Positions 5,194-52,642 are shown, counted from the stretch's first letter. The stretch is DNA of 64,000 bases from a virus (IMGVR_UViG_2693429668_000006); one strand, 5' to 3'. The notes: generated by a model from the sequence alone, not told the origin. A program made the numbers and translations.

Positions 5194-5751
5194 TTACACA
5201 ATTTCAGAGGGTAATTTAAAAAATCCGTACTTATTACGTGCCTTAAAGAAGCATTGCATCATTAAGTTTGTGTCATATAAGGCACTATGTGCTTTGGCAT
5301 GATCGTATATAAAGCCAAGAGAGAAGGCCAACTCTTCAAGGCGGGGACGTTTACCGTCTTCTGTGGCCCACAATCCCGATAACATAGTATCTATAACAGG
5401 AACTTCTGGCAGTCTTACTCCATACCCTGAAAACTCGTGTCGAATAAATGGTATATCAAATGCTTCGCCGTTATGAGCAACCCACACACTACATGCCCCC
5501 ATATAAGCGCCAATTTCGCTGGCATGATTTGACAACAAAGGTTCAGCTGCGAGCTGTTCCAATGAAATGCCATGAACGGCTTGAGCTTTCGGATCTATGT
5601 TTCTGCGAGGGTTAAAACGCATCTCCAGACTATCAATATGTCTCTGTGTCTCCAGTTCATAGCGGGTAATTGCGATTTCAATAATTTTATGACCAGCAAG
5701 GAAATCCAGTCCCGTAGACTCGATATCGATGCCTGCAACAATCGTTGTCAT
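5194..5751 (-). CDS. DEDDh 3-prime-5-prime exonuclease (DnaQ-like)
   Basis: Exo I GIDIESTGL, Exo II HNGEAFDIPF, Exo III HSALYDT motifs. Confidence 0.7.
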   Translation of the reverse strand: MTTIVAGIDIESTGLDFLAGHKIIEIAITRYELETQRHIDSLEMRFNPRRNIDPKAQAVHGISLEQLAAEPLLSNHASEIGAYMGACSVWVAHNGEAFDIPFIRHEFSGYGVRLPEVPVIDTMLSGLWATEDGKRPRLEELAFSLGFIYDHAKAHSALYDTNLMMQCFFKARNKYGFFKLPSEIV

Positions 5752-19274: not shown

Positions 19275-19376
19275 GTATGCTGTCAGCGGTAATTGATAGT
19301 CTGTCAGCGGTTCACCGTATGCTGCCAACTGTTTTTGGTATTCTGTCAGCGGCAAATCAAGTATGCTGTCAGCGGT
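19275..19376. repeat. upstream iteron array: 5 copies of ~16-bp GTATGCTGTCAGCGGT (some degenerate)
   Basis: copies at 19275, 19295, 19317, 19338, 19361. Confidence 0.75.
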
Positions 19377-19396
19377 TGAATGACAAAGGTGTCCAC

Positions 19397-26149: not shown

Positions 26150-26422
26150 TCAGGCTCCTTTTGTTTCGTTGATTCGTTTTAAAGCGGCGGATTCGTCTAA
26201 TACAATCGCATCGTGATTAAGGAGTCTGGATACACGAGCGAGGATTTTTACGACCTGCTCGCTGACTAATCCAAACTCGCGATCTGTCGCTTTCATTCCG
26301 GCAGCGCCTAGAATTGACGGCAGTGCGATGACAGCGTACTCACCGTGATAAAAGACAATCTCTTTTGCCAGTTGGGTGGGGGTGGTTGTAGCGCCATTAA
26401 TAATCGATTTAAGCATTAGCAA
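26150..26422 (-). CDS. hypothetical protein (90 aa)
   Basis: ORF track. Confidence 0.4.
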   Translation of the reverse strand: MLMLKSIINGATTTPTQLAKEIVFYHGEYAVIALPSILGAAGMKATDREFGLVSEQVVKILARVSRLLNHDAIVLDESAALKRINETKGA

Positions 26423-27411
26423 TACCTTTCGAATGGAAGAACAAACACTTCAAGGTCTTCAAGGAACGAACGGAAATTCAGCTCGTAGCACAGTTGCTCG
26501 AATGCTTTCACGTCACGATTGCCTTTGATTGTTTCGATTTCGGTAGGCGGAAACTTCGTCTCAATCAGGTTCATTAGCGTGATGTTTCTCTTGAACGCTT
26601 CGAGCATTCGACAGCCTGTTTTCTCGTTGAAGGCATTCTTCGCTAGTTTGTTGAAGGCGGTCTTATGACGCCCTTTATTAACCACGATTGAGCCGTCGTT
26701 GATGCCGCGTACCATCGTTGCGACACTTCCCCATTCATGCAGCAGCTCTTTCGCACCGCCAGCACCAATGCCTCCAACACCGCTAATGTTGTCCGAGTTA
26801 TCGCCTTGTAATGCTTTTGCTTCCAAAAATGCGCGAGGCGTGGCGAATCCTGTCAGCTCCGCAAATTGCTCAAAATTAACCTGCTTGTTTTTGGCGTCTT
26901 CACGCAGGCTTACCCAGCTTACGTTTTCACGAACTAACTGAAGCCAGTCGCTATCGCCTGTTAACAGATAGATGTGTTCAACGGTTGGCTGCGGTGCCAT
27001 GCGGGATACCAGCAGCCCGGCCAGATCATCCGCTTCTGCATCTTTTGCAATGAGTTGGGTAACTCCAAGCGCGGTCATCATTTTGAGGATGTATGGCTTC
27101 TGGATAGCAAAGCCTTCCTTCATCTTTTTCATATCAGGATCGTCGTCGCGATTTGCTTTGTAGTCCGGGTAAAAGTCGCGACGCTTGTCACTAAATCCAT
27201 CCCAAAGAATCATAGGTCGGGCATGGAGGATGGAGGCATAACGACGGACGTTCTTAACAAAGCCGAAAGCAGCCTGTACTTCCATTTCGCCGTTGTGCAA
27301 TTTGTCAGATTGTTGGTGGTAATAACCCAGGCTATTGCCATCTACGAAGAGATAATTCACCGGTACATTCCTTCCAAAAAGTAAGGCGTCCGTAGACGCC
27401 TTACTGGTCAC
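26416..27411 (-). CDS. 5-prime-3-prime exonuclease / flap endonuclease (FEN family)
   Basis: N-terminal YLFVDGNSLGY, acidic cluster DAEADDLAG, H3TH-like C-terminal region. Confidence 0.75.
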   Translation of the reverse strand: MTSKASTDALLFGRNVPVNYLFVDGNSLGYYHQQSDKLHNGEMEVQAAFGFVKNVRRYASILHARPMILWDGFSDKRRDFYPDYKANRDDDPDMKKMKEGFAIQKPYILKMMTALGVTQLIAKDAEADDLAGLLVSRMAPQPTVEHIYLLTGDSDWLQLVRENVSWVSLREDAKNKQVNFEQFAELTGFATPRAFLEAKALQGDNSDNISGVGGIGAGGAKELLHEWGSVATMVRGINDGSIVVNKGRHKTAFNKLAKNAFNEKTGCRMLEAFKRNITLMNLIETKFPPTEIETIKGNRDVKAFEQLCYELNFRSFLEDLEVFVLPFERYC

Positions 27412-27420
27412 GTAATGGGA

Positions 27421-28449
27421 TTACAGAGAGTCCAGCTCTCTCAGTAGGTCATCCAGACCTTCATCTTCCGTCGCAGATGCGGCTGCTACAGATGTCGCTG
27501 CGACTGCTTCAGACTCTTTGACTGATACTGCAACGGCAGCGGAACTTGCTTCTGGTTTAAATTCAGTTTCAACGGCACGGAGGATTTCTTCATCAACCAG
27601 ACTGGTTGGTTCAGAAGCCGGTGTGTGCGCGGTTGCTACAGCCGTCGCTCCTTCTGTATGACCAGTGACAGAGCCAAATCCAGGTAGTGCCGCAGCCGAT
27701 GTTTTCGCGGTTGAGGAAATTGCTGGTGCAGATGCTGCGGCAGTTGGTGCAGCGATGCCAATCAGACGACCCATAGTGCGAACTGTCGACAGAAGACGAG
27801 TTTCATCAGCCTGATTTGCGTATGCGATCAGATCATGCTGGGTGTTCCAGAATTTATCTTCGATATCGCCTTTGTAGACTTTACGCTTAGGCGAGACGTC
27901 ATATTTGGTATCGCGACCAGAGCCAGTACGTTTAATCAGGAATGCGTAGCCTTCCTCTTTGCTCAGTGGATTGCCGATATCATCAGCGATGTCTTCGGTG
28001 ATTGCTTTGCAGATATCATCGAATACAGTAGACGGCAGCTCGATTAACTGGCATTTCTCAGCATCTGCGAAATCCTCACGAGCAGAAAGAATGCCGTTGA
28101 CCAGGTAGCGAGGAGTGGCACGCATTTGACCGATGCGTTCTTCCATTGCTTTGTTACCCTTGTGACGAGCGCGACCTTCCATAACCATTTCGCATAGCTG
28201 ACAAGCGCGACCGTGAGTATGTTGCTCACAAATATAAGCGTTGGTTGCTTCTTTACCTTCCTCGTTCTGATACTTAACGTAGTGCATACCGAAAGTCTGG
28301 AAGAACTTACCGTTTGGGTCGTCTTTATTCGGGAAGATGCGGATATAGTTGACGCCGTCTTTTAAGCGAGTCAGATCAACGTTGTTGCCACGTTTGGCGG
28401 CAATGTCTTCACGAGTTTTGTTAAGCAAATCAAGTAATGTCTTAGACAT
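27421..28449 (-). CDS. single-stranded DNA-binding protein, T4 gp32-like
   Basis: VNYIRIFPNKDD... collinear with gp32 core; H/C zinc-ligand cluster (CEQHTHGRACQLC); acidic C-terminal tail (DEGLDDLLRELDSL). Confidence 0.6.
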   Translation of the reverse strand: MSKTLLDLLNKTREDIAAKRGNNVDLTRLKDGVNYIRIFPNKDDPNGKFFQTFGMHYVKYQNEEGKEATNAYICEQHTHGRACQLCEMVMEGRARHKGNKAMEERIGQMRATPRYLVNGILSAREDFADAEKCQLIELPSTVFDDICKAITEDIADDIGNPLSKEEGYAFLIKRTGSGRDTKYDVSPKRKVYKGDIEDKFWNTQHDLIAYANQADETRLLSTVRTMGRLIGIAAPTAAASAPAISSTAKTSAAALPGFGSVTGHTEGATAVATAHTPASEPTSLVDEEILRAVETEFKPEASSAAVAVSVKESEAVAATSVAAASATEDEGLDDLLRELDSL

Positions 28450-30102: not shown

Positions 30103-30431
30103 TGATGCCCGCCAATTGGCGGGCATCTGTTCTCTGTAAAGGTGTCTGGCATCGTCTGGTTCGTTAACGTTTACTAAACCAATGGTGACAAAAATTAGTT
30201 ATCTTTGAAAAATAAAGGTTGCATGAAAAGAAGGGGTATGCGTTAATAGCATCGTTGGTTTGCAAGACAGACCTTATGTAAGCAGTTTTAGTAAAGCAGT
30301 CTCAGTTCAGTGTTATCTTCTGATTTCCCTTCTTCGTGAGTCTCCTCCTTAAGTGCCTAAGTAAGTCCCAATCTATACAGATCAAATTCTCGCCGCACTA
30401 TGTGGCTCACAAAATTAAGAAGGTAATATCT

Positions 30432-30647
30432 ATGTCTAATAAAATGACTGGTTTAGTAAAATGGTTTAACTCTGATAAAGGCTTTGGCTTTATTTCTCCT
30501 GCTGATGGCAGTAAAGATGTTTTTGTACATTTTTCGGCAATTCAGAGTAATAATTTCCGCACTTTGGAAGAAGGCCAGCAGGTCGAATTCTCTATCGAGA
30601 ATGGGGCTAAAGGCCCAGCAGCAGCAAATGTCGTTGCTCTAAGCTGA
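30432..30647 (+). CDS. cold-shock protein (CspA family, 71 aa)
   Basis: RNP1/RNP2 motifs KGFGFI and VFVHF; GLVKWFN start; ~190-nt leader upstream. Confidence 0.85.
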
Positions 30648-30925
30648 TTCAACGCTGATGATCCTCATTTCTACAATAACGAAGACGGTGTAAGCCTGAG
30701 TGGATAGATTTGTAGGATTGTACAAGTTGAATAAATTAGCATGGTAAGGCCATGCTAATTAAATCGACACAACGGCCAGTTTATTCCATAAAAGTGAATT
30801 GCCCATTGTGGCGAAATGCGGGGTTGCCGCATGAATAGTCAAAGGCAGAAGCTAACTGCCGGCATGGCAAAACAAAGTGCGTAAGAGGAGTGACTTCCTC
30901 AACAAGCGCCATAATTCTTTATAAA

Positions 30926-30950
30926 CCCGCCAACAGGCGGGTTTTCTTTA
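30926..30950 (+). terminator. rho-independent terminator
   Basis: hairpin CCCGCC-AACA-GGCGGG followed by TTTTCTTT; between convergent csp and dnaE. Confidence 0.6.
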
Positions 30951-33900
30951 TTACTTATTTATTGTCTCCGCGATATCAGCCAGAATGGCCTCCAGTCGCT
31001 CTCCTTCTTCCGGTCGGAAGTACAGGATATTCGGGTTAAATCCGTAGAAGACGGTTGCATCAAGCTCTGGGAAGTACTCCTTACGACCAATCAGATCTGA
31101 TGGTTTACTCTTATTGTTAAATAGTGCGGTTGAACGACTACCACACGTCAAAATGTAGGTTGGTCGTACAAGATTAATTTCTTCCCGCATAAAGTCTGTG
31201 AACTGGCCTATCTCGTCTTTGGTATAGTCTTTCTCTTTGTCCTTAACCTTCTTACAAACACCCGTGACATAAAGATCGCCCATGCGCAGATCTCCAACTG
31301 TCAGTAGTTTTGCCTTAAAGTCGTCGTATCCGTTCTCCATGAAGTAGCCGGTACGAGCGTCATTGCCGTTCGCATTGTCCAGAATGATCATGATTTTGGG
31401 TTTAATACCAATAGTCGGGCGTATCAACTCCTCACCCAAGCCCATTTCAGCCGCCATACGTGTCATGAGTACGTTGATTTCGGCAGAACGCTTAGGATTC
31501 ATTTCGAACGGACGTGATGCTTTAACAGCGTCAATGATGAGATTGCCCATCAGCTCAGCCTGGTCGCGCAGTCGTTCAGGATCAGTTGCTGGCAGACTGC
31601 CTGGCTCAATTGACGCAAAAGCCCCTACTTTATGAAGCGACTCGCGTACACGACTGTTACATGCACGCTTCTCGACCGCTTCATCGAATTGTGCCACTGA
31701 CTCGAATTTGCCACCAACTTTCTCACGCGCACGCATAATTGCCTGACAACCATTTTCAGAACAGCCTTTCACAGCAGAGAATGGCGCATACAGTGCCTGA
31801 CTGCCGTCTTCGAGTGTGCGGATCTCAATTCGGTTAGATGACACATTAACGTCTGGTGGCAATACGCGAATGCCATAGGTCAGCGCATCCTTCACCAGCC
31901 CCTGATGCTTATCCTCGCCCAGAATGGTGAGCGCAGCTGCGAAGAACTCAGCAGGGTAGTGCGTCTTTAGCCACATAGACTGATAACTGATTAAAGAATA
32001 AGAAACGGAGTGTGATTTATTGAACTGATAGGCTCCGTTTTTCTCAAATGCGGTCCAGATCTCCTTCGCTTTCATCTCTGATAGCCCTGGATGTGACGCT
32101 GTAACGCGTACTGCGTTTATAGGTAGTTTTGCGCCGTGCTCAAGTGCCTCTTCGACAGTTTTCAGAGTTCCGTCTTCGCATTTAAAATGTTCCGCACGGT
32201 GAATGCGCTGTGTAGTGCCATCTTCCAGCTCAACGTCTATCCAGCCAGCTTGAGCCTGAACGATGAACTTCTCGCCCATGCTCTTCATTTTTTCCATGTT
32301 CTTCTTACCGATTGCGGAACGCACAGCGTCAGCTTCAGCCATTGTGAAGCCGGCAAGCAATCGAGTCGCGTTCATCGTCTGTTCCTGATAGAGAATCACG
32401 CCATTTGTTTCCGCGGTAAGTTCATCAAGAACGGGGTGTAATGATTCCGGCGTCATAAAGCCTTTGGCGACAGAAACATAGTCATCCAACATGCCTGATT
32501 GAATTGGCCCCGGCCGGAAGAGCGCAGTTGTAGCGACGACCGTTTTAAAGCTCATTGGCTCAATTCCACCACCTAAATCTTTAAGCAGCTTGCGCATTGG
32601 GCCTGATTCAAGCTGGAAAACACCTTGAGTGTACCCAGCAGCAAAACCATCCAGCACCTTGCGATCTTCAAGAGAAATGGCATCAAGATTGATATCTTCA
32701 CCTGTGTTCTCTTTTATGTAGCGTTTTGCACTATCGAGCAAATCGAGAGTTGCCAGGCCAAGCACGTCCAGCTTAATTAGGCCCATAGCCTCGCAGTAAC
32801 GCTTGTCAAATGCGATACAACGCGCGTCACCACGGCGCTCAACCGGTGTACGTTCTGTCAGAGGAACACCTGCTACGATCATCCCTGCCGCATGTCTACC
32901 AAAGCCACGCATAAGGCTTTGTAACTTGCAGGCTGCATTGAATGCATCAGGATATTTTGTTGCGTATTTGTCGAGACTTGCCAGTTGTTCGCGCAGTTCT
33001 TCCAATGGAAGGCTATCATCCTCAGCGTTCTTCAGTTCTTTTGATACCGCCATATCTGCGGACTCCACACCATAAATACGAGCGGTGTCACGTAGTGCAG
33101 AGGCTGCGCCCAGGTAGGTGAAGTTCGGAATGCCTGCAACGTAATCTTCGCCGTAGCGTTCATTCAGATACTCGATCACCTCATGGCGACGTGCCTGGCT
33201 GAAGTCCAAATCCGCATCTGGCAAGTCGAGACGCTCAGGGTTGATGAAACGTTCAAACAGAAGACCGTGACGGATAGGGTCGACGTTGGTTATGCCTATG
33301 CACCATGCCACCAAAGAGCCAGCGGAGGAACCACGACCAGGCCCGACAGGAATGCCAGTTTCACGGCTGTGATTCATCAGATCGCGTACCATCAGGAAGT
33401 AACCACAAAATCCCAGGCGAGTAAGCGTGTCCATTTCGTACTTAAGTCGCTCAACATAAACCCTGTTCTCAGAAGCCGGTGGTGTGTATCCAAACTCTTT
33501 TGTGGTAAGACGTTTACGCAGCCCTGCAACAGCCAGTTTCATCAGCGTTGCAGGTTCGTCGTCTGCCATCTTGGGCAGTGCTGGTGGCAATTCATGCCAG
33601 CGCCATGTACAGGCTTCGATAATGGAGTCCTGCGTTGTTGAGGCCATTGCAGCTGTTACCGGCACATCCATGCGAACGGAGAAGGCTTTAAGCGCCTCAA
33701 GGAGATGGCGGCGACCATTGACGGCGTTATCTCGCTGGTGGGGTATACGCAGACGATGCGGCTGGTCGATTTTTATGTTGTTCGTAACCATGTGCGCAAT
33801 GTCTTTAATGTCTGCATCGTCGATCGATTCGTAATAAGCGGGATAGAACGCTACTGGCTCTATTTTCAGTGCGCTGGCTACTTTCATCGCTCGGACGTTA

Positions 33901-34469
33901 ATCTGGTCGTAGAATGGGGTAGGGTGCGGATAAACCACGCTATAGAAGTTGTCTTTCCCGCCCGCTGTAATCAGTGAGCTTATGATTTTTGCAAAATCGT
34001 TGCGTTGGAACACGCTACCGATGTCGGAAGTGAGCAGGATGATGTTGCCTTTGGCATATGTAGAAACCAACTGTTCGAGCGAGAGACGCGGTACAAAGTA
34101 GAACTGTTCTCGTGTGTTGGCCACCGTCATTAGTTCGCAGATGTCGCGATATCCTTGCTCATTTTTAATTAGAGCGGTAAACGAGTAGTTACGTCCCCGC
34201 TCTAATGATTCCATACATCTCATAGATTCTTTAGCAAGTTTAGCCCGGTGCTCGTATGTGGGATCATCAACGATATTTAGTTTCACACCACAAATAACCG
34301 CCATGTCGTCACCAGCGGCACGTTGTAGTGGAATAACACTCGCAATATTCATGCTATCTGCTGAAATTACAGCGGTGTAGCCAGCTTCTCTGGCAATCTT
34401 CACCGCGTTTTCTGCTTTTAGAGCCGACTCCCCAAGTGAGAAGTCAGTTCGAACCATCAGTGCTTTCAT
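30951..34469 (-). CDS. dnaE: DNA polymerase III alpha subunit (DnaE-type, PHP domain N-terminus)
   Basis: 1172 aa; Pol III alpha core (GPGRGSSAGSLVAWCIGITNVDP), degenerate PHP N-terminus; ATG at 34467-34469. Confidence 0.8.
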   Translation of the reverse strand: MKALMVRTDFSLGESALKAENAVKIAREAGYTAVISADSMNIASVIPLQRAAGDDMAVICGVKLNIVDDPTYEHRAKLAKESMRCMESLERGRNYSFTALIKNEQGYRDICELMTVANTREQFYFVPRLSLEQLVSTYAKGNIILLTSDIGSVFQRNDFAKIISSLITAGGKDNFYSVVYPHPTPFYDQINVRAMKVASALKIEPVAFYPAYYESIDDADIKDIAHMVTNNIKIDQPHRLRIPHQRDNAVNGRRHLLEALKAFSVRMDVPVTAAMASTTQDSIIEACTWRWHELPPALPKMADDEPATLMKLAVAGLRKRLTTKEFGYTPPASENRVYVERLKYEMDTLTRLGFCGYFLMVRDLMNHSRETGIPVGPGRGSSAGSLVAWCIGITNVDPIRHGLLFERFINPERLDLPDADLDFSQARRHEVIEYLNERYGEDYVAGIPNFTYLGAASALRDTARIYGVESADMAVSKELKNAEDDSLPLEELREQLASLDKYATKYPDAFNAACKLQSLMRGFGRHAAGMIVAGVPLTERTPVERRGDARCIAFDKRYCEAMGLIKLDVLGLATLDLLDSAKRYIKENTGEDINLDAISLEDRKVLDGFAAGYTQGVFQLESGPMRKLLKDLGGGIEPMSFKTVVATTALFRPGPIQSGMLDDYVSVAKGFMTPESLHPVLDELTAETNGVILYQEQTMNATRLLAGFTMAEADAVRSAIGKKNMEKMKSMGEKFIVQAQAGWIDVELEDGTTQRIHRAEHFKCEDGTLKTVEEALEHGAKLPINAVRVTASHPGLSEMKAKEIWTAFEKNGAYQFNKSHSVSYSLISYQSMWLKTHYPAEFFAAALTILGEDKHQGLVKDALTYGIRVLPPDVNVSSNRIEIRTLEDGSQALYAPFSAVKGCSENGCQAIMRAREKVGGKFESVAQFDEAVEKRACNSRVRESLHKVGAFASIEPGSLPATDPERLRDQAELMGNLIIDAVKASRPFEMNPKRSAEINVLMTRMAAEMGLGEELIRPTIGIKPKIMIILDNANGNDARTGYFMENGYDDFKAKLLTVGDLRMGDLYVTGVCKKVKDKEKDYTKDEIGQFTDFMREEINLVRPTYILTCGSRSTALFNNKSKPSDLIGRKEYFPELDATVFYGFNPNILYFRPEEGERLEAILADIAETINK

Positions 34470-34653
34470 GTGTTTTTACCTTTATGGTTTTTTTGATTTT
34501 GTCATTGGGGAAGCCTACGAACTTCCCATACATCGAAATCGCAACTTCTTTTGCTGATTGGTGACAATCGGGCTTGTCTGGACATACCAGACAAGCCTTA
34601 CCAGTTTCAGAAGCAGCGATAAGAGAGCCGAAACATCCTTTACGCACGATCAA
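34444..34653 (-). CDS. small Cys-rich hypothetical protein (69 aa)
   Basis: ORF track; CLVCPDKPDC cluster; overlaps dnaE start by 26 nt. Confidence 0.3.
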   Translation of the reverse strand: MIVRKGCFGSLIAASETGKACLVCPDKPDCHQSAKEVAISMYGKFVGFPNDKIKKTIKVKTHESTDGSN

Positions 34654-35885
34654 CCAAATATTTTTTGAACAACTTCACGAGCCGCTTGTGCAGAAGCTGA
34701 AGGGAGTTTGTTAATGAAAGAACGCTCAATACCTGTCACAAAGTCGCCTCGCATCATTCCAATCTTGGCCGACAACAAAAGTTCACGAGGGCCAATTGGC
34801 TGACTGATAAGGTGTTCTTCGTATCCATCGCGAACGATACCGGCAAACTTAACCATCTTTTCTGCGTATTCATCCACGATACCGGCATTTATCAACATGT
34901 TGATCTCTGCCTCTTTGCTCATGTATTTCACATTCGAAACGATGCCAAAACGCGAAAAGTTCGCGGCGTTCTGGATGTTTGTACCCTGGTACAAGCCGGT
35001 TTCATCACCAGATCCGTTCGTGTTGCCAGTGCCAATGAAAGCAAACCGTTCATGCGGAGTAATGCGACGCCATTCTGGAGTCGCCTCTTTGATGACCAAC
35101 GCTTCACCTTCCAGCACTGGCTGATACACGCCAAGAATCTGTGGAAACGCAAAGTCGTATTCATCCGCGAGGTAAACCCAGCCATGCTTCATTGCGAGCG
35201 CAAGCAAGCCAGGCTCGAAATACGTAGAGCCATCACGCGCCAGAATTTGCCCCGTAACATGTGCCTCTTCCATTGATGCTGTATGTTGGGCACGGATCAA
35301 CGGACGATTGAGCAAAGCACATAGTTGTGTAGGCAATGACGATTTGCCTGTTCCTGCATGACCCCACAAATAGCCAGGTATGCCAAGTTCAAGCATCATG
35401 AAAATGTCTTTGATCAGTTCGAAGTCGCCATATACGTAGCCCTTCTTCACTTCTGGAACGAACTCTGGAAACGGCGTATTGACGTTGACGCTAACCATGA
35501 GCGGCGTCCCACGTTTTGTTCCGAGTTCTTTCACCGTTACATTTAGCAGTTCGTGAGCTGCGACCAGATCTGTCTTGTACTCAACTGTGCCTGTGTAGCC
35601 TGGGCTACTGGTCACGCCAGATGATTTGGCCATTTCGCTTTTTTGCTCGGCACGTTTAGCTTGAATTGCATCAAGTGCCTTTTTCGATAGCGTTGGTTCA
35701 TCTGGAAACTGCGTTGTGTACATTTTCAGTACGGTGTCAGGATCGGCATCTTTTACTGACTCAGGAATGCCCTCGCAATTACCATTGGCTACATGGGACT
35801 TAAAATAGTGAAATGATTTGCCGCACCACTTGCAAACAAGGTAATCAGAAGGATTTTTATCATTTTGCAGTGCAGTAGTAGTCAT
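34650..35885 (-). CDS. AAA+ ATPase (MoxR/CobS-like) with N-terminal zinc-finger-like segment
   Basis: Walker A GHAGTGKSS, Walker B-like VYLADEYD; N-terminal CKWCG...C. Confidence 0.65.
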   Translation of the reverse strand: MTTTALQNDKNPSDYLVCKWCGKSFHYFKSHVANGNCEGIPESVKDADPDTVLKMYTTQFPDEPTLSKKALDAIQAKRAEQKSEMAKSSGVTSSPGYTGTVEYKTDLVAAHELLNVTVKELGTKRGTPLMVSVNVNTPFPEFVPEVKKGYVYGDFELIKDIFMMLELGIPGYLWGHAGTGKSSLPTQLCALLNRPLIRAQHTASMEEAHVTGQILARDGSTYFEPGLLALAMKHGWVYLADEYDFAFPQILGVYQPVLEGEALVIKEATPEWRRITPHERFAFIGTGNTNGSGDETGLYQGTNIQNAANFSRFGIVSNVKYMSKEAEINMLINAGIVDEYAEKMVKFAGIVRDGYEEHLISQPIGPRELLLSAKIGMMRGDFVTGIERSFINKLPSASAQAAREVVQKIFG

Positions 35886-35980: not shown

Positions 35981-38089
35981 TTACTTCAAAATGATACGAG
36001 ATAGTTCAGTAACTACAGATGAACCAAGACTATCAACACTAGTTACCAGGGCATGATTTGCGTAAAATCTCTCCGGTGCATCAGTCATGATGCCAATTGC
36101 CATCAAATCAATGTCAGTCTGCGTTTCAATTTGCTTCGTAACCGAACGCAAATGGGCGTCAAAACCTCTCCCAACAGCCCACGGCGCGCCATCACTCAGA
36201 ACAAGCATGATCTTCCTGTCCTCCAAGCGACCGGAAAATAACGATGCAAGGCTGGCTATGCTTTCACCATCCACGTTATTAAGAAGTGGGAATGTGTAGC
36301 CTACGCACCCCATACGTGAGCGAACTTCGCGAGAATTTGCTTTTTCATTCCAATTTTTGATGATAGGTAGCATTAAAGATTCAAAGCGAGAGAACTCATA
36401 TTTGATAGCCTTAAGTTCTCCTGCTGCCATATGACTGCCAAATGTAGTGAAGCCGGTGATAATGTTGGGAACATTTATTCGATCAAGTGCATCGGCGATG
36501 GTATATGCACTTGCAAGAGCTAGTTTTATCGTTTCGCCACTCATTGAACCCGATAAATCAATCACTTGTTGAACACAGGCGTTAACGGCTTTAGATTCTT
36601 CTTTTTTACGAAACACGCGATCATCATTCATTGTTAATCTGTAGATACTTGAACCATGAATGCGCCCCCGACGCTGGCCAGGTATAAACTGAACTCTGTT
36701 TCTGCTTGCTATTGCACGTTCCAGGTCTTTTGCCAGCGTCGACGAAACACCTGACGAAAGGTGCTTTTCAATATATTTGTCGAAGAGCTGGTTGCCTTCA
36801 GGAACGATGCGATAACGGCTGATTGGATATCCACCTAAATCAATATCGGAGAATGTTTTAATAAGCCGTTTGATATGGGCTTCTGCCTGATCAATCGAGC
36901 CGATGAAGTCGTATGAGCGATTGTATGGCCTGTATTCGCTTTTCGAGCTTTCTGTTAACTCGCTTTTAATCGTTTCGGATAGCGCATCTTCTGTCATGCC
37001 TCCGACTTCATCTTCCATGCTATCCAACTCCTCTAAAGCCTCTTCCAGACTCATTTTTGACGGAGTTGGAATGTCTGAAGAGCCGTCTTCTGTCGATTTT
37101 CTTTTTTCGTGGTCAGTGGTAAATGATTCTGACGCCGCGTTATCAGAAGCACCAGAATCTGATACCTCTTTATCATTTTCTGTATCATCGAATATTGTTT
37201 CTGATGATTCAGAATTATCTGAATCATCACTGTCGTTATTATCATGTTTGTACTTACTGTGTGATTCTGATTTGATAGATTTGTGATTATCTAACGCTGA
37301 GGGTGTCTCATGATCTTCGTTGTCTTCATTGTTTTCTCCAGAGGCATCCGTCTGGTCAGCGTCTGAAGGATCGGAAGTTTTTCCCGGAGCTGACTCCTTA
37401 CCTTTGCTTTCACTTTCAGTGTCTTTGAGGATCTTAGCTATGGTCGCAGCCACCTTTACACAATCCTCGGTGCAAGACATGTTACGCACGGCCACATCGA
37501 TACCATGTTCTTTTAATAATGAAATTGGTTTCTCAATGACAGGCCAATATTCATCCATGAAATCTACGAACGGTGCTTGGCCATCCCAGGCTCTTACAAC
37601 CGGACAGAGAAAGAAGTTTAGAAAAAGCGCGCGCTGATCTTTGCCACAATAAGCAATAGCCTCTGAAGCCTTTGTTTTAAAGACTTTTTCGATTATAAGG
37701 CGCTGAGTTGCCATCAGATTACGTCTTGTTCCGTTAAAGACCTGACCCATTTTTCGCTCGATGAACACGTCTTCTAAGGCATTCCATAGCGACCAGGAAG
37801 GAACGCGTCCTTTTTCTCTCATTTTGTTGGACACACGAATATCGGTAAACAAAATGTGAGCAACCTCATGATCGAGAAATCCGCGCACAGCATTCATCAA
37901 TGCCGGTGTTGCGTTATCCGGGATTGATGGGATGTTTACGAGAATTGGCTCTCCATCATCGTTATAGCGTACATAAGCGTCGTCCCCTCGTTCTGCAACA
38001 GGGATGTTTTTACCTGAAAGGAGAGCGACTACTCGTTTTACACTGTCACGGAAGTCCTGAACCTCTTTGATGGAACGTTTTTTAGACAT
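35981..38089 (-). CDS. von Willebrand factor A (VWA) domain protein (CobT-like partner of AAA+ ATPase)
   Basis: C-terminal MIDAS motif DLSGSMSG; long acidic Ser/Asp-rich linker. Confidence 0.6.
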   Translation of the reverse strand: MSKKRSIKEVQDFRDSVKRVVALLSGKNIPVAERGDDAYVRYNDDGEPILVNIPSIPDNATPALMNAVRGFLDHEVAHILFTDIRVSNKMREKGRVPSWSLWNALEDVFIERKMGQVFNGTRRNLMATQRLIIEKVFKTKASEAIAYCGKDQRALFLNFFLCPVVRAWDGQAPFVDFMDEYWPVIEKPISLLKEHGIDVAVRNMSCTEDCVKVAATIAKILKDTESESKGKESAPGKTSDPSDADQTDASGENNEDNEDHETPSALDNHKSIKSESHSKYKHDNNDSDDSDNSESSETIFDDTENDKEVSDSGASDNAASESFTTDHEKRKSTEDGSSDIPTPSKMSLEEALEELDSMEDEVGGMTEDALSETIKSELTESSKSEYRPYNRSYDFIGSIDQAEAHIKRLIKTFSDIDLGGYPISRYRIVPEGNQLFDKYIEKHLSSGVSSTLAKDLERAIASRNRVQFIPGQRRGRIHGSSIYRLTMNDDRVFRKKEESKAVNACVQQVIDLSGSMSGETIKLALASAYTIADALDRINVPNIITGFTTFGSHMAAGELKAIKYEFSRFESLMLPIIKNWNEKANSREVRSRMGCVGYTFPLLNNVDGESIASLASLFSGRLEDRKIMLVLSDGAPWAVGRGFDAHLRSVTKQIETQTDIDLMAIGIMTDAPERFYANHALVTSVDSLGSSVVTELSRIILK

Positions 38090-43159: not shown

Positions 43160-43246
43160 TGGCGGAGAGTAATGGAATCGAACCATCATCGTTTGCACAA
43201 TGGGACGGTTTTCAAGACCGCTTGAGCACCATGCTCCCTACTCTCC
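43160..43246 (-). tRNA. tRNA-Ser (anticodon UGA)
   Basis: 87-nt cloverleaf with encoded CCA, anticodon loop CUUGAAA, long variable arm, T-loop TTCGATT. Confidence 0.8.
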
Positions 43247-43540
43247 AATTGTGTTGTGTGCTCCGTTTCGTGGAGCTAACGGCGGGTGATCAGACCGCAC
43301 CAGGTTGGACGTATTTCAGCGTTATGCTGTTGCAAGAGAGCCAAATTGTGATGGCCGGTGCTGATCTCCGGCATTGCCTACGTTAGCGGCCTTCAGGCAG
43401 TTCATCCGCTTGCTTCTACGTCGCACATCAGCCTGTGCATTCACCACAATGTTGAGAACACTGGTTGTCACGCTGCAACGCAACATTATATTCATAAATT
43501 GGGATATGAACCCGTTACGCCAATGTTCTCAATATTATGT

Positions 43541-43616
43541 TGGTGCCGGTTAACGGACTTGAACCGCTGGCCATTTGCTTACAAAGCGACTGCTCTACCA
43601 ACTGAGCTAAACCGGC
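43541..43616 (-). tRNA. tRNA-Thr (anticodon UGU), two mismatches in anticodon stem
   Basis: 76 nt; acceptor/D/T arms canonical; loop TTTGTAA; possibly pseudo-tRNA. Confidence 0.6.
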
Positions 43617-43620
43617 AATT

Positions 43621-43707
43621 TGGTGGGGAGTGATGGAGTCGAACCACCCGAGTCGCAATGACAGTAGATTTACAGTCTACACCGCTACCTCTACGGACTA
43701 ACTCCCC
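43621..43707 (-). tRNA. tRNA-Tyr (anticodon GUA)
   Basis: 87 nt; anticodon arm GTAGA-CTGTAAA-TCTAC; long variable arm. Confidence 0.8.
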
Positions 43708-43712
43708 TAAAT

Positions 43713-43787
43713 TGGCGATGGTGGGTGGATTCGAACCACCGATCAGTTGGTTAACAGCCAACTGCTCTACCGCTGAGCTACACCATC
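43713..43787 (-). tRNA. tRNA-Asn (anticodon GUU)
   Basis: 75 nt; anticodon arm GTTGG-CTGTTAA-CCAAC; T-arm GGTGG-TTCGAAT-CCACC. Confidence 0.85.
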
Positions 43788-45387: not shown

Positions 45388-46710
45388 TCATTCTTTATCT
45401 CCGATTCGATCTTCTGTATCGCGTAAGCAACGCGGCCATTTCAGTCGTGGGTGGCGTAAGCTGCCGTCCGGTGTTTTCTCGTGACAATGAACCTCAACAA
45501 TACGACCACGGTACTTCTCTTTGTTGTTCCAGATCTCGTCCAGATATTTATGCTTAATGCCGCTCGCACGAACAATCACACCGTTTTCAAGGCGAATAAC
45601 AATTTTTCCAAGCGTGTTGGCAAAACCAGAGTCCGGGTCGCCCGACTCAAAGTCGATAATTTCACCATCTTCTGAATCTTCGTCTTTTAACTTCCACCAG
45701 CTGCGGGTACGTTTAAACTCGTAAACAGAGTTCGGATCTTTGCCCATCTCCCCTTCTTCGTTATCGTCAAGGCGTTTCATGAAGCGTTCGATGAAGTCTT
45801 CGTGGCTATGGATGATATAGAACGGATGCAGGTGAATGTCTTGTGTGTAGCCTTCACTGCGATCGTTTTTGAACAACGCCACGAGAATAGCCAGGCGCTC
45901 TTTCAGCTTCATACCTGTCTTTGCATACTCTTTGGATTTAGCCTGTGCCCGCCATTCCGGTAGGAAGAAGTCGAAAACATGATAAATAGCGCCAATTGCC
46001 TGCACGTTCTTTTTGCGCAATGCAGATACGGACTGGTTAAATGAACCGGCTGTTCCTTCACCATCGAAGAAGATGTGTTTGTGGCCTGAAAGTTTGCCTA
46101 ATTCGAGCATTGCTGGCTTTAGGTGATCGAGAGACGTGATTGGATTACCAGTACGAGAAAGGAAGTTAACCTCTTCCTCGTCAACAATAACCTCGCAAAT
46201 TACTCGCAAACCATCGAGCTTAAGACTGCCAATCATCGGCCATTTTGCTTTAGGGTTTGGCTTGAAGGGGTATTTGTCGCCTTTTTCTTTATACGGTGAC
46301 GCCAGCTGCACCTCGAATTTCGGAATGGGATTTTCAAAAACCTTGTTGCATAGGCTAATCCCAACACCCGCTTTCGGGTCTTTTAAGAGGAAACGACGGA
46401 ACACGTCCTGCCCATCGGCGCACATTGACGCCACGATAGACTCAACAGCAGCTATTGCTGCGTTCCCCGTCAGCTCGCGAGAGGCCAGCTTATTCAGTAC
46501 ATCAATGGCTTTTTCGTCACTTGGGACGGACTCACTAAGCGGCTCTGCCACTTTGTATTTCTTTACCCCAAAACGGATGAAAGGGTTGAGCATCAATGAA
46601 ACCATGCTTTGTTCAAAGTCATCCATGTTGGCCAATGCCTCTTTTTTTGCATTGGTTCCCATAGCTTTCATTTCGTCCAGCTTATGCTTAAGTGCGATCA
46701 ACTTTTTCAT
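45388..46710 (-). CDS. ATP-dependent DNA ligase
   Basis: adenylation motif I KLDGLR; 440 aa. Confidence 0.8.
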   Translation of the reverse strand: MKKLIALKHKLDEMKAMGTNAKKEALANMDDFEQSMVSLMLNPFIRFGVKKYKVAEPLSESVPSDEKAIDVLNKLASRELTGNAAIAAVESIVASMCADGQDVFRRFLLKDPKAGVGISLCNKVFENPIPKFEVQLASPYKEKGDKYPFKPNPKAKWPMIGSLKLDGLRVICEVIVDEEEVNFLSRTGNPITSLDHLKPAMLELGKLSGHKHIFFDGEGTAGSFNQSVSALRKKNVQAIGAIYHVFDFFLPEWRAQAKSKEYAKTGMKLKERLAILVALFKNDRSEGYTQDIHLHPFYIIHSHEDFIERFMKRLDDNEEGEMGKDPNSVYEFKRTRSWWKLKDEDSEDGEIIDFESGDPDSGFANTLGKIVIRLENGVIVRASGIKHKYLDEIWNNKEKYRGRIVEVHCHEKTPDGSLRHPRLKWPRCLRDTEDRIGDKE

Positions 46711-48793: not shown

Positions 48794-50047
48794 ATGAAAC
48801 TCATAAAACCTTCATCGTTGCTGGCATTAGCTTTGCTTTTCGGCCCTGGATACGTTAACGCAGATAATAAACAAACGCTGATCGACGCCGCCACCGCAGG
48901 AGATACCACAGCACAAAGTGCGTTAGGGACAAATTATTTGGATGGGGCTAATGGCTTTGATGAGGATTTAGTAGAGGCCAAGAAGTGGATCGATCTCGCC
49001 GCAGAAAAGGGAGATAAAGTAGCATATTATGCGCTTGGGGTTATGTACACAATTGGGAAGGGAGTAGATAAAGATCTAAATAAGGCCGTTGAGTACTACA
49101 AACTAGCAGGAAATGCTCGCAACGGCAGTGCTTACCATAATCTTGCCGTTATATACGAACGAGGTTGGACTGGAAAGGAGGACCCAGAAGCTGCTTTAAA
49201 ATATCACAAACTAGCAGTAGAAGCTGGTGATATACCTTCGCTTGCCTATATGGGATATTTATATCAATACGGTAAGGGAGTTCCGAAAGATTACAAGAAA
49301 GCATTTAAATCTTATAAAAAGGCTGCGGATAGTGGAAATGCCGCAGGAATGTATGGGCTAGGCTCTATGTACGACGATGGTGTTGCTGTTAAGCGCAACA
49401 ATAAAGAGGCAATTAAGTGGTACTTGAAAGCAGCTGAATTAGGAAATAATAACGCCATGAGCGCGCTTGGATACAAGTTGATGCATGGAGAAGGTATAAA
49501 AAAAGACTATTCGAAGGCCAGAAGTCTTTTAGAACAAGCAATCAGCTTAGGAAATGATTATGCCATGAACCACCTTGGTTACATGTATCTTAAGGGATTG
49601 GGCGTCAAACAGGATTATCGGAAAGCATCAGAGCTTTACCAAGCTGCTTGCGATAAAGATGACGAAACGGGCTGCGAAAACGTTGCTGCAATGAAAGCAA
49701 AAGGTACGTTCCGTTCGCCTTCAAAACAGCAAAATGCCAAATCTGACACTCAGCGACTTATTGCTAAATCCATTGATAAAGGCGTTAACGCAACATTTAC
49801 CTGGCAGGGTGATGATGCCGTCTTCACCGCTAATGATGGCAAAGTTGACTGCACCTTCTTGAAGGATTTTTCAGAGAAAGGAGGCAATCTGGCTACCTCG
49901 TTTGTTTGCACCGATAACGTTCAAATCATCCTGAAGCAATTCAGAGATACCAAGAATGCCTACCTCGCGGTAATGACTGACAACTTCAACACAGAAGTTA
50001 AATCATTTTCGGTCAATGTTTACGTGACTAATACTGGTTCAAACTAA
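48794..50047 (+). CDS. secreted Sel1-repeat (TPR-like) protein
   Basis: signal peptide; tandem ~36-aa Sel1-like repeats (A..LG.MY..G.GV.KD...A..WY.KAA). Confidence 0.65.
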   Translation: MKLIKPSSLLALALLFGPGYVNADNKQTLIDAATAGDTTAQSALGTNYLDGANGFDEDLVEAKKWIDLAAEKGDKVAYYALGVMYTIGKGVDKDLNKAVEYYKLAGNARNGSAYHNLAVIYERGWTGKEDPEAALKYHKLAVEAGDIPSLAYMGYLYQYGKGVPKDYKKAFKSYKKAADSGNAAGMYGLGSMYDDGVAVKRNNKEAIKWYLKAAELGNNNAMSALGYKLMHGEGIKKDYSKARSLLEQAISLGNDYAMNHLGYMYLKGLGVKQDYRKASELYQAACDKDDETGCENVAAMKAKGTFRSPSKQQNAKSDTQRLIAKSIDKGVNATFTWQGDDAVFTANDGKVDCTFLKDFSEKGGNLATSFVCTDNVQIILKQFRDTKNAYLAVMTDNFNTEVKSFSVNVYVTNTGSN

Positions 50048-51220
50048 TGCTGCTATACCTTTTACCTTGCTTAAAAGTTCAAGCTGTCGTGAGTAAGGTT
50101 TTGCGCAATAGTAGGCTTTGATAATCTGCCCCGGTGTCGCATCGCCGGGGTCGAGTCCTTCCTCGCCCAAACACGCAACTTTGACATTAAGACCAATACT
50201 GGTCAGTCGCCTGGCTGCGGCCATCGTGTTTCGTATAGCTTGCTTTTCACTATCCCACATCATGATCACATTACGTAATCCACGCGCCTTGAGCGTCAGG
50301 AACGCGCCCAACTGATCTTCTGCATCCTGAGTGGTGTTGCCAGATAGATGCATCCCGAACGTTCCTATTGGCTCCACGTAATCACGTAATGTTTCTTCGT
50401 CGAAAATAGCTCGTTTGACCCCCATAACATCGAACGCACCCTCACAGACAACTACAGTCTGTTTGCCGACTGCATTATGGCCGTTGTAGAGAAATTTACC
50501 TGAAGCTGGAAGCTGCATAGGAAAGAGGTAGCGGCGTTCTGCTGTACCGGTAATGTCTCGTCCCTGAAATGTCTTCATTACCCCATCCAGATCGTAAACC
50601 GGTATCAGTATTCGCATATCGAATATCTGCCCTTTTACCTGATCTGTATACGGATCTACATAAGCGTGCTTGCCTTCGACGCAGTATCGTAGGTCAAAAT
50701 ACTTTGCCATTTCAGGTGATATGTTTCGTTCAACCAGATAGTCTGGAAGACGGCCATCTATAGGAAGCTCGTAATGACGAGGGAGTGCAACTGGCCCCTC
50801 TAACTCGACTGTGCTTGCAAGCACTAGCTCTTCTTTCTTTGGTGTCCACCCCTGGGAAAGAAGAGCGTTCTGCACATATTCCTCGAACTGTCGTCGTGAT
50901 TTACCGCTGTAGTGCTTGAGGAAGACCAGCTTATTGAACTGAATCTCTTCGGGATGATCACCAGCGAAGCATTTGCCGACGCCACTGGTCAGATTGAAAT
51001 ATACCTTCCAGTTGGAGCTGCCGCATACCGGACACTCTTTGATATTCACTTCACGACCGCGAGCACTCACGCCTCCACGTCGATAAACGATACCTTCAGT
51101 ATCCAACCATTGTTCAAAATCTAATTCGGCAATTAGCTCTTTCAGCTCGCTCACGATAATTCCACTTTTAACAGGCAATATTGTGACCAACCTAAATGTT
51201 GATATAACATAAAGGCTCAT
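50039..51220 (-). CDS. DnaG-like DNA primase (zinc finger + TOPRIM)
   Basis: zinc-binding CPVCGSSNW...GKCFAGDH; TOPRIM VVVCEGAFDVMG / MWDSEK; ATG at 51220 with conserved initiation context. Confidence 0.7.
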   Translation of the reverse strand: MSLYVISTFRLVTILPVKSGIIVSELKELIAELDFEQWLDTEGIVYRRGGVSARGREVNIKECPVCGSSNWKVYFNLTSGVGKCFAGDHPEEIQFNKLVFLKHYSGKSRRQFEEYVQNALLSQGWTPKKEELVLASTVELEGPVALPRHYELPIDGRLPDYLVERNISPEMAKYFDLRYCVEGKHAYVDPYTDQVKGQIFDMRILIPVYDLDGVMKTFQGRDITGTAERRYLFPMQLPASGKFLYNGHNAVGKQTVVVCEGAFDVMGVKRAIFDEETLRDYVEPIGTFGMHLSGNTTQDAEDQLGAFLTLKARGLRNVIMMWDSEKQAIRNTMAAARRLTSIGLNVKVACLGEEGLDPGDATPGQIIKAYYCAKPYSRQLELLSKVKGIAALV

Positions 51221-51301
51221 GTGTTTTTCTTTTGTGGTTTGGCAAAAGAAAAGTTGTTTCACCAATGAATCAAGCGTGGAGGTGTTCTCCACGCTTATTT
51301 T

Positions 51302-52642
51302 TTAGGTAACGTCTAAGATTCGCTCAATGAAGCGCATTTGTTCGAGGTTTTGTTTAACGCGAATGCTGATCCCTCCCTGCTGGTTACGTGAACCGGCAAA
51401 GTAGAGACGAGCCTCTCCTTTCGCTTCTTCTTCTTCGGTTTTGTTGATCGTTATTACCAGGTCAGCAATACGTACTTTTTCGATGTTGTCGGCAGCGTGC
51501 ATCATTGTGGCAACTTCTGACGCGCCACCTTCACGGTTTGTCTGCGATGCCGTGATCCCAGCAACGTTATGCTTGTCATAAAGAGCACGTAAATCGGTGT
51601 AGATACTACGAATGTTGGCGCGATCATCACGAAGGTCATAACTGGCACGCATCAAATCTGCGTAGTCGACAACAACCATGTCAGGCACCATGCCGTTGGC
51701 TTTCATGCTGTTAAGCATACGGTCCAGATCTGCCGGTGACATACTTCCTGACGGACGCTCAACAACCCACAAACTACCAATCCCCTTAGAGGCTCCCAAC
51801 TCTGCCAACTTACGATGAACTTCATCGCGCCGTTCCACCAACTTGGACATTTCCGTCTCCGACAATCTTGCATCAAAACGGTCGGACAAAATGTTGGTGT
51901 GAACCTCCAGCGAGAGATACAGAACATTGTAGCCAGCAAGCGTTGCGTTTATGGAAAACTCGCCCATTGCGGTCGATTTACCGGATTTAGCGAACCCCAT
52001 GAAGAGCACCATTTCGCGCTTTGCCCAGCCTTTTTGGTACAGCAACCTATCGAGAAGAGGGAGTCCAGTTGTAATACTGTTTGGTACATACTCCTCTGAA
52101 GCCTCATATTCACGCGCTTTCAATCGCTCACTTGCGGAGGTGTAGTAGTCATAGATTCCGGTCGCTTCGTTCGATCCAATCTGCTGAACCTTGGCCATGA
52201 TTGCCATCGCCCCCTGAAAGTCGCCCTTCTCTTTCAGTTCAGCAGCCTTAATCAGAGCATCATCAAACGCTACGCTTTTTGCGAAGGTTGATACCTGGTC
52301 AACCATGTACGAGGTATCGGACAATTTTTCTGCAAGGATGCGCTTAAACGCAACAACAACATCGGCGAATAGTTCCTCACGGATAGTCTTATCGCGTTTC
52401 GCACGCTTAAGCATATCCAGAATTGCAGATGAAGAGGGCGCGCTCTTGTACATACGGTAATAGCCCGAAACCATATTAACCAATATGGCATTGGCCGCAT
52501 TGGCAAATTGGCTAGGCACAACCAGATCTCCCGCACGAGTAAGAAACTCGTGATCACGACAAAAATATGCCGTCAGTCTGTTCTGGAAATCTTCATCAAA
52601 CTCTTCGGACAGCCCGCGTCCTGTATGGCAAAGTTCGGTCAT
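51302..52642 (-). CDS. DnaB-family replicative helicase
   Basis: Walker A GFAKSGKST, RecA-like C-terminal domain, 446 aa. Confidence 0.75.
   Translation of the reverse strand: MTELCHTGRGLSEEFDEDFQNRLTAYFCRDHEFLTRAGDLVVPSQFANAANAILVNMVSGYYRMYKSAPSSSAILDMLKRAKRDKTIREELFADVVVAFKRILAEKLSDTSYMVDQVSTFAKSVAFDDALIKAAELKEKGDFQGAMAIMAKVQQIGSNEATGIYDYYTSASERLKAREYEASEEYVPNSITTGLPLLDRLLYQKGWAKREMVLFMGFAKSGKSTAMGEFSINATLAGYNVLYLSLEVHTNILSDRFDARLSETEMSKLVERRDEVHRKLAELGASKGIGSLWVVERPSGSMSPADLDRMLNSMKANGMVPDMVVVDYADLMRASYDLRDDRANIRSIYTDLRALYDKHNVAGITASQTNREGGASEVATMMHAADNIEKVRIADLVITINKTEEEEAKGEARLYFAGSRNQQGGISIRVKQNLEQMRFIERILDVT

Follow-up and report, generated by a model that had tools for sequence, protein, structure and literature searches.

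C-family DNA polymerases were found in 28 of 808 double-stranded DNA virus genomes (PMC3201878), and an architecture in which a polymerase of this kind (DnaE) ends in a uracil-DNA glycosylase (UDG) domain was published in 2014 by Timinskas et al. (PMC3919608), who cite Aravind and Koonin (2000) for the archaeal-type UDG domain. SSU5_052 of Salmonella phage SSU5, the polymerase of the Escherichia phage-plasmid Cyrano and gp048 of the Rhizobium phage RHEph10 share one family and one architecture, in which PHP, Pol3 and (HhH)2 regions follow each other and an archaeal-type (family-4) UDG takes the place of the OB fold and the C-terminal domain (CTD); the RefSeq note on RHEph10 gp048 already includes the words 'uracil-DNA glycosylase-like'. 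UDG-like domains also occur at the N-termini of the family-A polymerases of SPO1 and T5, for which Kazlauskas and Venclovas proposed a processivity role by analogy with vaccinia D4/A20, and whose function was still to be addressed as of 2011 (PMC3201878). Here we describe a dnaE-type gene in a stretch of 64,000 nucleotides of viral DNA (IMGVR_UViG_2693429668_000006; the whole analysed stretch is called the window below). We found no essential difference between its product and the published DnaE-UDG family. Given the 2014 survey and the public phage annotation, both the identity of the polymerase and its DnaE-UDG layout are correct but already known. The literature we searched gives one sentence to the architecture, and we found none on the loss of PHP ligands, the changes in the UDG motifs, the fingers insertion or the relatives with split genes.

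We propose as the probable explanation that the gene encodes the catalytic DNA polymerase of an SSU5-like phage-plasmid, with a UDG-fold tail that would act as a DNA-binding module, and that the enzyme would work uncoupled from a clamp loader and be proofread in trans. The gene and its predicted parts are the following.

30951..34469 (stop codon included), minus strand: dnaE-type polymerase gene, a single open reading frame (ORF) with an ATG start, 1172 amino acids (aa) and 0 internal stops.
33600..34469 (aa 1 to ~290), minus strand: degenerate PHP domain (Pfam PHP, 49.8 bits).
32757..33545 (aa 309-571), minus strand: palm and thumb core (Pfam DNA_pol3_alpha), with catalytic D418, D420 and D568.
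32250..32750 (aa 574-740), minus strand: first part of the fingers (Pfam DNA_pol3_finger).
32091..32249 (aa 741-793), minus strand: fingers insertion of 52-53 aa, placed by alignment to DnaE of T. aquaticus (Taq), by an AlphaFold2 (AF2) model and by split relatives.
31605..31874 (aa 866-955), minus strand: (HhH)2 domain, duplex-binding or beta-binding (Pfam HHH_6), which aligns to residues 736-896 of E. coli alpha.
31539..31580 (aa 964-977), minus strand: conserved helix, a candidate beta-clamp-binding motif or inter-domain anchor (from conservation and AF2).
30954..31508 (aa 988-1172), minus strand: family-4 UDG-like domain in place of the OB fold and the tau-binding CTD (from AF2, Foldseek and profile comparison).

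The polymerase gene also serves to place the element. The Prokaryotic Genome Annotation Pipeline (PGAP) calls dnaE at the same coordinates in a plasmid with 100% identical DNA, and the gene is 100% identical to those of E. coli plasmid pMB5646_2 (NZ_CP103659.1, 109.6 kb) and MF554642.1, 96% identical to that of Cyrano and 84% identical to that of SSU5. Matches to it are present in 745 PLSDB plasmids from Klebsiella, Escherichia, Enterobacter, Yersinia and Salmonella; gene matches of the SSU5 type include 63 Yersinia and 49 Salmonella plasmid records, which we take to be the pMT1 and pHCM2 plasmids. Gene order in the window is the same as in SSU5, tail genes are found both in the window and in plasmid NZ_CP103659.1, and the window encodes a plasmid-type initiator.

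19277-20491: Rep3-type RepA (Pfam).

Because of the DNA identity of dnaE to E. coli plasmids, Cyrano and SSU5, together with the shared gene order, we assign the window to an SSU5-like phage-plasmid of E. coli, of which it is a part. Cyrano itself is maintained as a plasmid of about 5.5 copies and makes siphovirus particles, with induction by genotoxic stress (PMC9928086).

The class of the polymerase is clear from its profile matches. Pfam PHP (aa 6-175), DNA_pol3_alpha (aa 309-571, E=9e-74, 248.8 bits), DNA_pol3_finger (aa 574-740, E=8.5e-44, 149.3 bits) and HHH_6 (aa 866-955, E=3.3e-16, 59.7 bits) all score above their gathering thresholds, and the NCBIfam model of the Pol III alpha superfamily, TIGR00594, is passed with 625.1 bits against a cut-off of 434.35. 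Among PDB sequences the best matches are to DnaE of T. aquaticus (1.8e-120), M. tuberculosis (1.8e-113) and E. coli (5e-108), each confined to aa 7-953; PolC structures match far less well. The protein matches phrog_405 ('DNA polymerase') of PHROGs from end to end. D418, D420 and D568 line up with Taq D463, D465 and D618, and this Asp triad is invariant in all 40 full-length sequences aligned (the window protein and 39 relatives). The fingers pick up again at aa 792 after the insertion, with the motif YQFNKSH at aa 814, and the full-length AF2 model reaches a mean predicted local distance difference test score (pLDDT) of 89.9 and a predicted TM score (pTM) of 0.84. An earlier note, made from the sequence alone, had called the product a DnaE-type enzyme rather than a family A or B polymerase; the Pfam, TIGR00594 and PDB matches and the invariant triad confirm this. 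Its further description of the product as a PHP-domain Pol III alpha-like protein of 1172 aa stands for the ORF and for aa 1-955, but not for the last ~215 aa, which are UDG-like rather than the OB fold and tau-binding region.

None of the narrower bacterial models is reached. The DnaE1 equivalog NF004226 reaches 673.5 bits, short of its cut-off of 1002, the remaining NCBIfam DnaE equivalog models likewise stay below their cut-offs, the DnaE2 subfamily model NF004225 gives 404.8 against 939 and the PolC model NF001688 gives 61.7 against 873; no exonuclease insert of the PolC type was found in the PHP domain in the Pfam scan. Judged by these scores, the protein is a member of the Pol III alpha superfamily that is the equivalog of none of DnaE1, DnaE2 or PolC, and the gene encodes a C-family (DnaE-type) polymerase of a phage-specific branch. 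PGAP names it dnaE, DNA polymerase III subunit alpha, as would be expected if a copy of the host chromosomal gene had recently been captured or were decaying. We consider that origin refuted, with a vanishingly small chance of being right, on several counts: every bacterial equivalog model failed, the C-terminus is different, the 1172-aa ORF is intact with an invariant active site, and conservation of the protein extends to several phage genera and to 138 clusters at 50% identity. Compared with bacterial DnaE1 of E. coli, T. aquaticus and M. tuberculosis, the window protein keeps the order of PHP, palm, thumb, fingers and (HhH)2 as well as the Asp triad, but lacks the OB fold, the tau-binding CTD and the nine PHP ligands, carries a 52-aa insertion in the fingers and fails the equivalog profile.

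Homology to DnaE ends at aa ~955, and in the PDB alignments the OB fold and tau-binding CTD are absent. What follows is modelled with confidence as a separate fold (AF2 of aa 960-1172, pLDDT 92, pTM 0.89). Foldseek places it closest to family-4 UDGs (best match 4zbx, E=1.7e-11, TM score 0.73 by query and 0.80 by target), followed by UdgX, then family 5, then TDG/MUG, and a sequence profile of the domain alone matches 4zbx of S. tokodaii (4.3e-23), 1l9g of T. maritima (1e-19) and 1ui0 of T. thermophilus (2.6e-17). The likeness to family-4 UDGs and UdgX thus extends to fold and to profile homology. The curated UDG models are missed: Pfam UDG PF03167 gives 15.8 bits against 24.3, and TIGR00758 gives 29.6 against a cut-off of 125.3. 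In family-4 enzymes the key residues are the motif-A GEAPG, a uracil-reading Asn within (T)N, and a motif-B His (HPS). The window protein differs at each of them: GEAPG has become L-D1031-N-A-N, with Ala for the motif-A Pro; the uracil-reading Asn is G1070 (in T1069-G1070), and A, S, G or T in all sequences of the family; and the motif-B His is N1145 (in N1145-P1146), with N, S or T in 39 of the 40 sequences and Ile in one. It also lacks the Fe-S cysteines (E1008, F1090, no CxxC), a loss in the SSU5 lineage, whereas about 45% of the relatives, distant ones, keep C-x2-C, His and Cys at the family-4 4Fe-4S positions (window aa 1008, 1015 and 1090). Because of these motif changes and the unreached curated models, we read the C-terminal domain, from sequence and model, as having a family-4 UDG fold without being a canonical uracil glycosylase.

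Could the domain nevertheless be an active or sensing glycosylase, for uracil or another modified base, that couples replication to base surveillance, in the manner of the read-ahead uracil pocket of archaeal family-B polymerases? The fold is that of a true family-4 UDG, an acidic residue is kept at the motif-A Glu position (D1031) in 36 of the 40 sequences, E1097, Y1067, T1069 and K1073 are invariant or nearly so, and the distant relatives with CxxC...H...C retain the Fe-S ligands. The replacement of the uracil-reading Asn throughout the family and of the motif-B His in the whole alignment, the Ala at the motif-A Pro and the lost Fe-S ligands of the window protein, and the low TIGR00758 score all speak against it, and we regard it as unlikely.

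By analogy we think it most likely that the domain is a non-catalytic DNA-binding module, used for processivity or for sensing the template. Like the window polymerase, the SPO1 and T5 family-A polymerases and the vaccinia D4 (UDG)-A20 processivity factor come from genomes with no sliding clamp and physically join a UDG fold to a viral replicative polymerase. Many phage family-A polymerases have UDG-like domains that are among the structural neighbours of the window domain in BFVD. The exhaustive HMMER search that yielded the 138 clusters at 50% identity mentioned above was made with the C-terminal 213 aa, and nearly all of these clusters are either C-termini of DnaE proteins of ~1080-1170 aa or (HhH)2+UDG proteins of ~385-400 aa. 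The sequenced phages that carry the domain belong to the SSU5 group, the Pseudomonas Nickievirus and the RHEph10-like phages of Rhizobium, and all have genomes of ~105-120 kb.

Between the (HhH)2 domain and the UDG-like domain lies a conserved helix that bears on how the polymerase is held on DNA. Immediately after (HhH)2 it carries R966..D969-Q970-A-E-L973-M974-G, and across 95 sequences Q is kept in 84, L in 74, M or L in 77 and R966 in 90; Q970 is present in 38 of the 40 full-length sequences. DnaE clamp-binding motifs sit directly after (HhH)2 (PMC3919608), and the Q970 motif fits QL[SD]LF at positions 1, 4 and 5 and resembles E. coli QADMF. The earlier note had suggested looking for a beta clamp, a clamp loader and tau; the Pfam scan of window ORFs revealed none of them, and neither did the PGAP annotation of the 109.6-kb plasmid whose dnaE is identical. 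Together, the conservation, the canonical place and the missing element-encoded clamp argue for a replicase dependent on the host clamp, in which Q970-A-E-L-M would bind host-loaded E. coli DnaN and the UDG-like domain would do something else. Against this stand the M or L at position 5, where the motif has F; the equal conservation of R966 and D969 with helical spacing; the model, in which the segment is an ordered helix (pLDDT ~88 in the full-length model) with its conserved residues along a single face rather than a free linear peptide; and the missing tau-binding domain for coupling to the host loader. Clamps are also typically absent from phages of 40-140 kb (PMC3201878). The helix fits an inter-domain anchor equally well, and we also considered that QAELMG may be what remains of EKExLGxY, the DnaE1 motif lying just ahead of the OB fold. 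We rate dependence on the host clamp, the main alternative to our reading, as possible, yet on balance doubtful.

The N-terminal PHP domain has lost its metal site. M. tuberculosis DnaE1 coordinates metal through H14, H16, D23, H48, E73, H107, C158, D226 and H228; in the alignment the corresponding positions of the window protein are M5, R7, E14, S39, K63, a gap, S148, P210 and Y212, so that none of the nine is kept, and across the 40 aligned sequences between 0 and 2 of the nine are kept. With all nine ligands lost, proofreading by the polymerase through its own PHP domain is excluded. A candidate for this function is encoded elsewhere in the window.

5194..5751, minus strand: DnaQ-like DEDDh 3'-5' exonuclease of 185 aa (Pfam RNase_T, E=6e-22).

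Among PDB sequences it is most similar to E. coli epsilon, in the exonuclease domain (E=8e-11), where the catalytic DEDDh residues align, and it matches phrog_192, 'DNA polymerase exonuclease subunit', at E=3.9e-51. The exonuclease is present in 24 of 24 phage records with DnaE-UDG, and also in 13 other phage records, mostly of ~106-122 kb with a few of 24-61 kb. Because it is epsilon-like with an intact DEDDh set and accompanies DnaE-UDG throughout, we consider it the likely trans-acting proofreader of this polymerase. Outside the window, plasmid NZ_CP103659.1 additionally carries a theta homologue (HolE/Hot-like, compare Hot of phage P1) at 81571-81822 (L004:46572-46823), beside an S24 peptidase gene, which hints at an interplay with host epsilon.

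The remainder of a replication and recombination set surrounds the polymerase gene.

27421..28449, minus strand: T4 gp32-like single-stranded DNA-binding protein (SSB; Pfam gp32 PF08804, E=1.7e-66).
26416..27411, minus strand: 5'-3' exonuclease or flap endonuclease (FEN; Pfam 5_3_exonuc_N and 5_3_exonuc).
23808-26147, minus strand: RecA-like recombinase of 779 aa with a LAGLIDADG homing-endonuclease intein inside (Pfam).
14945-16861: SbcC.
17091-18176: SbcD.
51302..52642, minus strand: DnaB-like replicative helicase (DnaB_C, E=3.4e-13; NCBIfam phage_DnaB, E=7e-14, below its cut-off).
50039..51292, minus strand: DnaG-like (Toprim) primase (weak Pfam DNAG_N and Toprim_2; TIGR01391, E=5e-9; PGAP 'DNA primase').
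45388..46710, minus strand: ATP-dependent DNA ligase (Pfam DNA_ligase_A_M, E=3.2e-13).
34650..35885, minus strand: CobS-like AAA_5 (MoxR-type) ATPase directly upstream of dnaE (Pfam AAA_5).
35981..38089, minus strand: CobT-like VWA protein, partner of the CobS-like ATPase (Pfam CobT_C, E=5.7e-83).

Also in the window are RNase HI, a RuvC-like resolvase, a weak UvsY-like match, NrdAB, ThyA and DHFR. The RecA of SSU5, at 358 aa, is free of the intein. Each of the neighbours listed in the earlier note (gp32-like SSB, RecA, SbcCD, FEN, DnaB-type helicase and DnaG-type primase) was recovered with Pfam or NCBIfam, and its suggestion of a distinct replisome lineage is borne out by synteny: the module ligase-CobT-CobS-DnaE-SSB-FEN-RecA-SbcDC is kept in the SSU5 group, in Pseudomonas phage nickie and in RHEph10, with synteny also in metagenomic relatives. 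The T4 replisome (gp43/gp45/gp44-62/gp41/gp61/gp32) shares with this set a gp32-family SSB, a DnaB-class helicase, a Toprim primase, a 5'-3' exonuclease, SbcCD-like analogues of gp46/47, a recombinase and the UvsY-like match, but the window polymerase is of the C family and not, like gp43, of the B family, and neither a gp45-type clamp nor a gp44/62 loader was detected. The element itself is an SSU5-like phage-plasmid and not a phage of the T4 or T5 type.

This gene context also bears on the notion that the enzyme is an accessory polymerase rather than the lytic replicase, either error-prone and DnaE2-like or devoted to plasmid maintenance or repair. A degenerate PHP domain and loss of the CTD are known in DnaE2 (PMC3919608), and the element is kept as a plasmid with its own RepA. 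The DnaE2 model nevertheless scores below the DnaE1 equivalog, imuA and imuB were found neither near the gene among the window ORFs scanned nor in the plasmid annotation, and dnaE is the sole polymerase gene in the annotation of the element. Furthermore, the module of helicase, primase, SSB, ligase and FEN is conserved in nickie and RHEph10, which have linear genomes, with no Rep gene in the module stretches examined. We judge an accessory role very unlikely.

We therefore return to a catalytic polymerase with a UDG-fold DNA-binding tail as the favoured explanation. During lytic growth this polymerase would operate together with proteins that the element itself encodes, namely the DnaB-like helicase, DnaG-like primase, gp32-like SSB, FEN/RNase H and ATP-dependent ligase, and its errors would be removed in trans by the DnaQ-like exonuclease. 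Since it has no tau-binding domain and the element encodes neither clamp nor clamp loader, the polymerase would be uncoupled from a clamp-loader complex, unlike E. coli Pol III. In the plasmid state, replication would be started by the Rep3-type RepA and probably performed by the host replisome. Several points weigh against this explanation. (i) The window covers 64 kb of the element, and the remainder is judged from a related plasmid. (ii) The 'replicative' and 'lytic-phase' roles are drawn from gene context, and our literature search for experimental work on this polymerase returned the 2014 survey only. (iii) The 185-aa exonuclease is without the C-terminal tail that binds E. coli epsilon to PHP, and a physical alpha-epsilon complex is conjectural. 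(iv) The Q-x-E-L-[ML] motif at the DnaE clamp-binding site may serve use of the host beta clamp. (v) A residual or altered glycosylase activity may persist, given the widely kept D1031 and the fact that MUG/TDG work with a motif-B Asn.

The fingers domain of the window protein departs from that of other DnaE proteins in a way that appears to record the history of the gene. The insertion is specific to its lineage: Taq DnaE passes directly from residue 788 to 789 at this point, and among 44 fused relatives the insertion is found in P0011 only. AF2 models it as a small beta-rich module with strands at 743-748, 753-757, 762-764, 767-769 and 786-793 (pLDDT 62-88), and the isolated region (aa ~725-868) yielded nothing above noise in Pfam. 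Syntenic relatives have a dnaE that is cut into two genes within the fingers, exactly at the position of the window's insertion.

L009:3558-7161: split dnaE encoding 790 aa and 386 aa, with a 70-nt spacer.
L003:1295-5407: split dnaE encoding 790 aa and 385 aa, with a 184-aa ORF between.
L011:2314-7191: split dnaE encoding 778 aa and 396 aa, with six small ORFs between.
L010:3-1741: split dnaE in which an HNH endonuclease gene abuts the C-half.

Window aa 741-793 align to the tails of the N-halves and the heads of the C-halves of L003, L009 and L011. C-halves that start with MK[IV]..[IV] make up about 30 of 37 representative clusters of ~370-460 aa, and PHROGs lists the C-half apart, as phrog_4335 of 'unknown function'. 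A scan of viral contigs with the split C-half P0026 returned only the fused relatives L006 and L008. Because the insertion matches the split junction and the fused relatives that were never split lack it, it looks like the scar of a split dnaE that was fused again.

Naturally split polymerases include gp43 of some T4-like phages and the split-intein DnaE of cyanobacteria. The relatives of the window gene resemble these in that their dnaE exists as two ORFs, cut near FNKSH, the site of the cyanobacterial DnaE and P0144 inteins; the window gene differs in being fused, with a junction module of ~55 aa that lacks intein splicing residues. Judged by block A Cys/Ser, block B TxxH, block G HN with a downstream nucleophile and a length of at least ~130 aa, the insertion was rejected as an intein, being ~55 aa long without splicing residues; hhalign gave a probability of 36% (E=3.8e-4) for the Npu DnaE intein and 0.6% for the P0144 mini-intein. 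Intein ancestry of the module is weakly suggested by these comparisons. True inteins occur in the same stretch of the fingers in P0048 and P0144, at the sites LRK|C and FNR|C...N|SH, of which the latter is the cyanobacterial DnaE intein site, and the stretch is a hot spot for mobile insertions.

The pair of genes directly upstream is a conserved accessory of the polymerase gene. A CobS-like gene precedes dnaE in L003 (61% identity), L006 (41% identity), L009, L011, SSU5, nickie and RHEph10, and the CobS/CobT-like pair does so in every relative examined, including L003, L006, L008, L009, L011, L012 and L013, at 41-61% identity. The CobS-like protein is no true CobS, since TIGR01650 gives it only 84.8 bits where the cut-off is 558; the CobT-like protein reaches 74.4 bits with TIGR01651 against 759, and on these scores the pair are not true cobaltochelatase subunits. 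A bolder idea, which we think quite improbable, is that DnaE-UDG, the DnaQ-like exonuclease and the CobS/CobT-like pair would together form a C-family replicase free of clamp and loader. In it the disabled UDG fold would be the processivity element and the MoxR-type pair an assembly or loading factor, and the fingers module would be the scar of a polymerase that in many relatives consists of two polypeptides. A small beta module, perhaps descended from Hint, would zip the halves together in those relatives, at a site where homing endonucleases and inteins have inserted again and again.

Further features lie around and beyond this module. A cspA-type cold-shock gene on the plus strand (30254-30672), with a thermoregulator 5' leader (Rfam RF01766, 185.7 bits), is convergent with the 3' end of dnaE, and the two genes have in common a G+C-rich terminator-like hairpin at 30923-30944. 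Four tRNA genes on the minus strand at 43160-43787 (Ser-TGA, Thr-TGT, Tyr-GTA and Asn-GTT) lie between the integrase region and the ligase gene. Two islands of low G+C content (~35%) contain, respectively, a 442-aa ORF on the plus strand with no family match (40732-42060) and a KAP-family P-loop NTPase gene on the minus strand (53608-55314), and a Sel1-repeat protein is encoded on the plus strand at 48794-50047, adjoining the primase gene on the opposite strand. The islands and the Sel1 gene look like variable cargo, absent or different in pMB5646_2 and SSU5, and are possibly defence genes.

As a sequence observation, the DnaE-UDG layout adds nothing beyond the existing annotation and the 2014 survey. 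The window protein nonetheless appears to be a natural bacterial-type (C-family) polymerase that acquired a UDG fold and gave up PHP proofreading, the OB fold and its connection to the clamp loader. Phage-plasmids of the SSU5 type are very frequent among clinical Enterobacteriaceae, as the number of PLSDB plasmids with this gene indicates, and they spread resistance genes, which makes their replication of practical interest. If the UDG fold is indeed an intrinsic device for processivity or template sensing, these elements would represent a second, independent solution beside those of the SPO1 and T5 family-A polymerases and vaccinia D4/A20.

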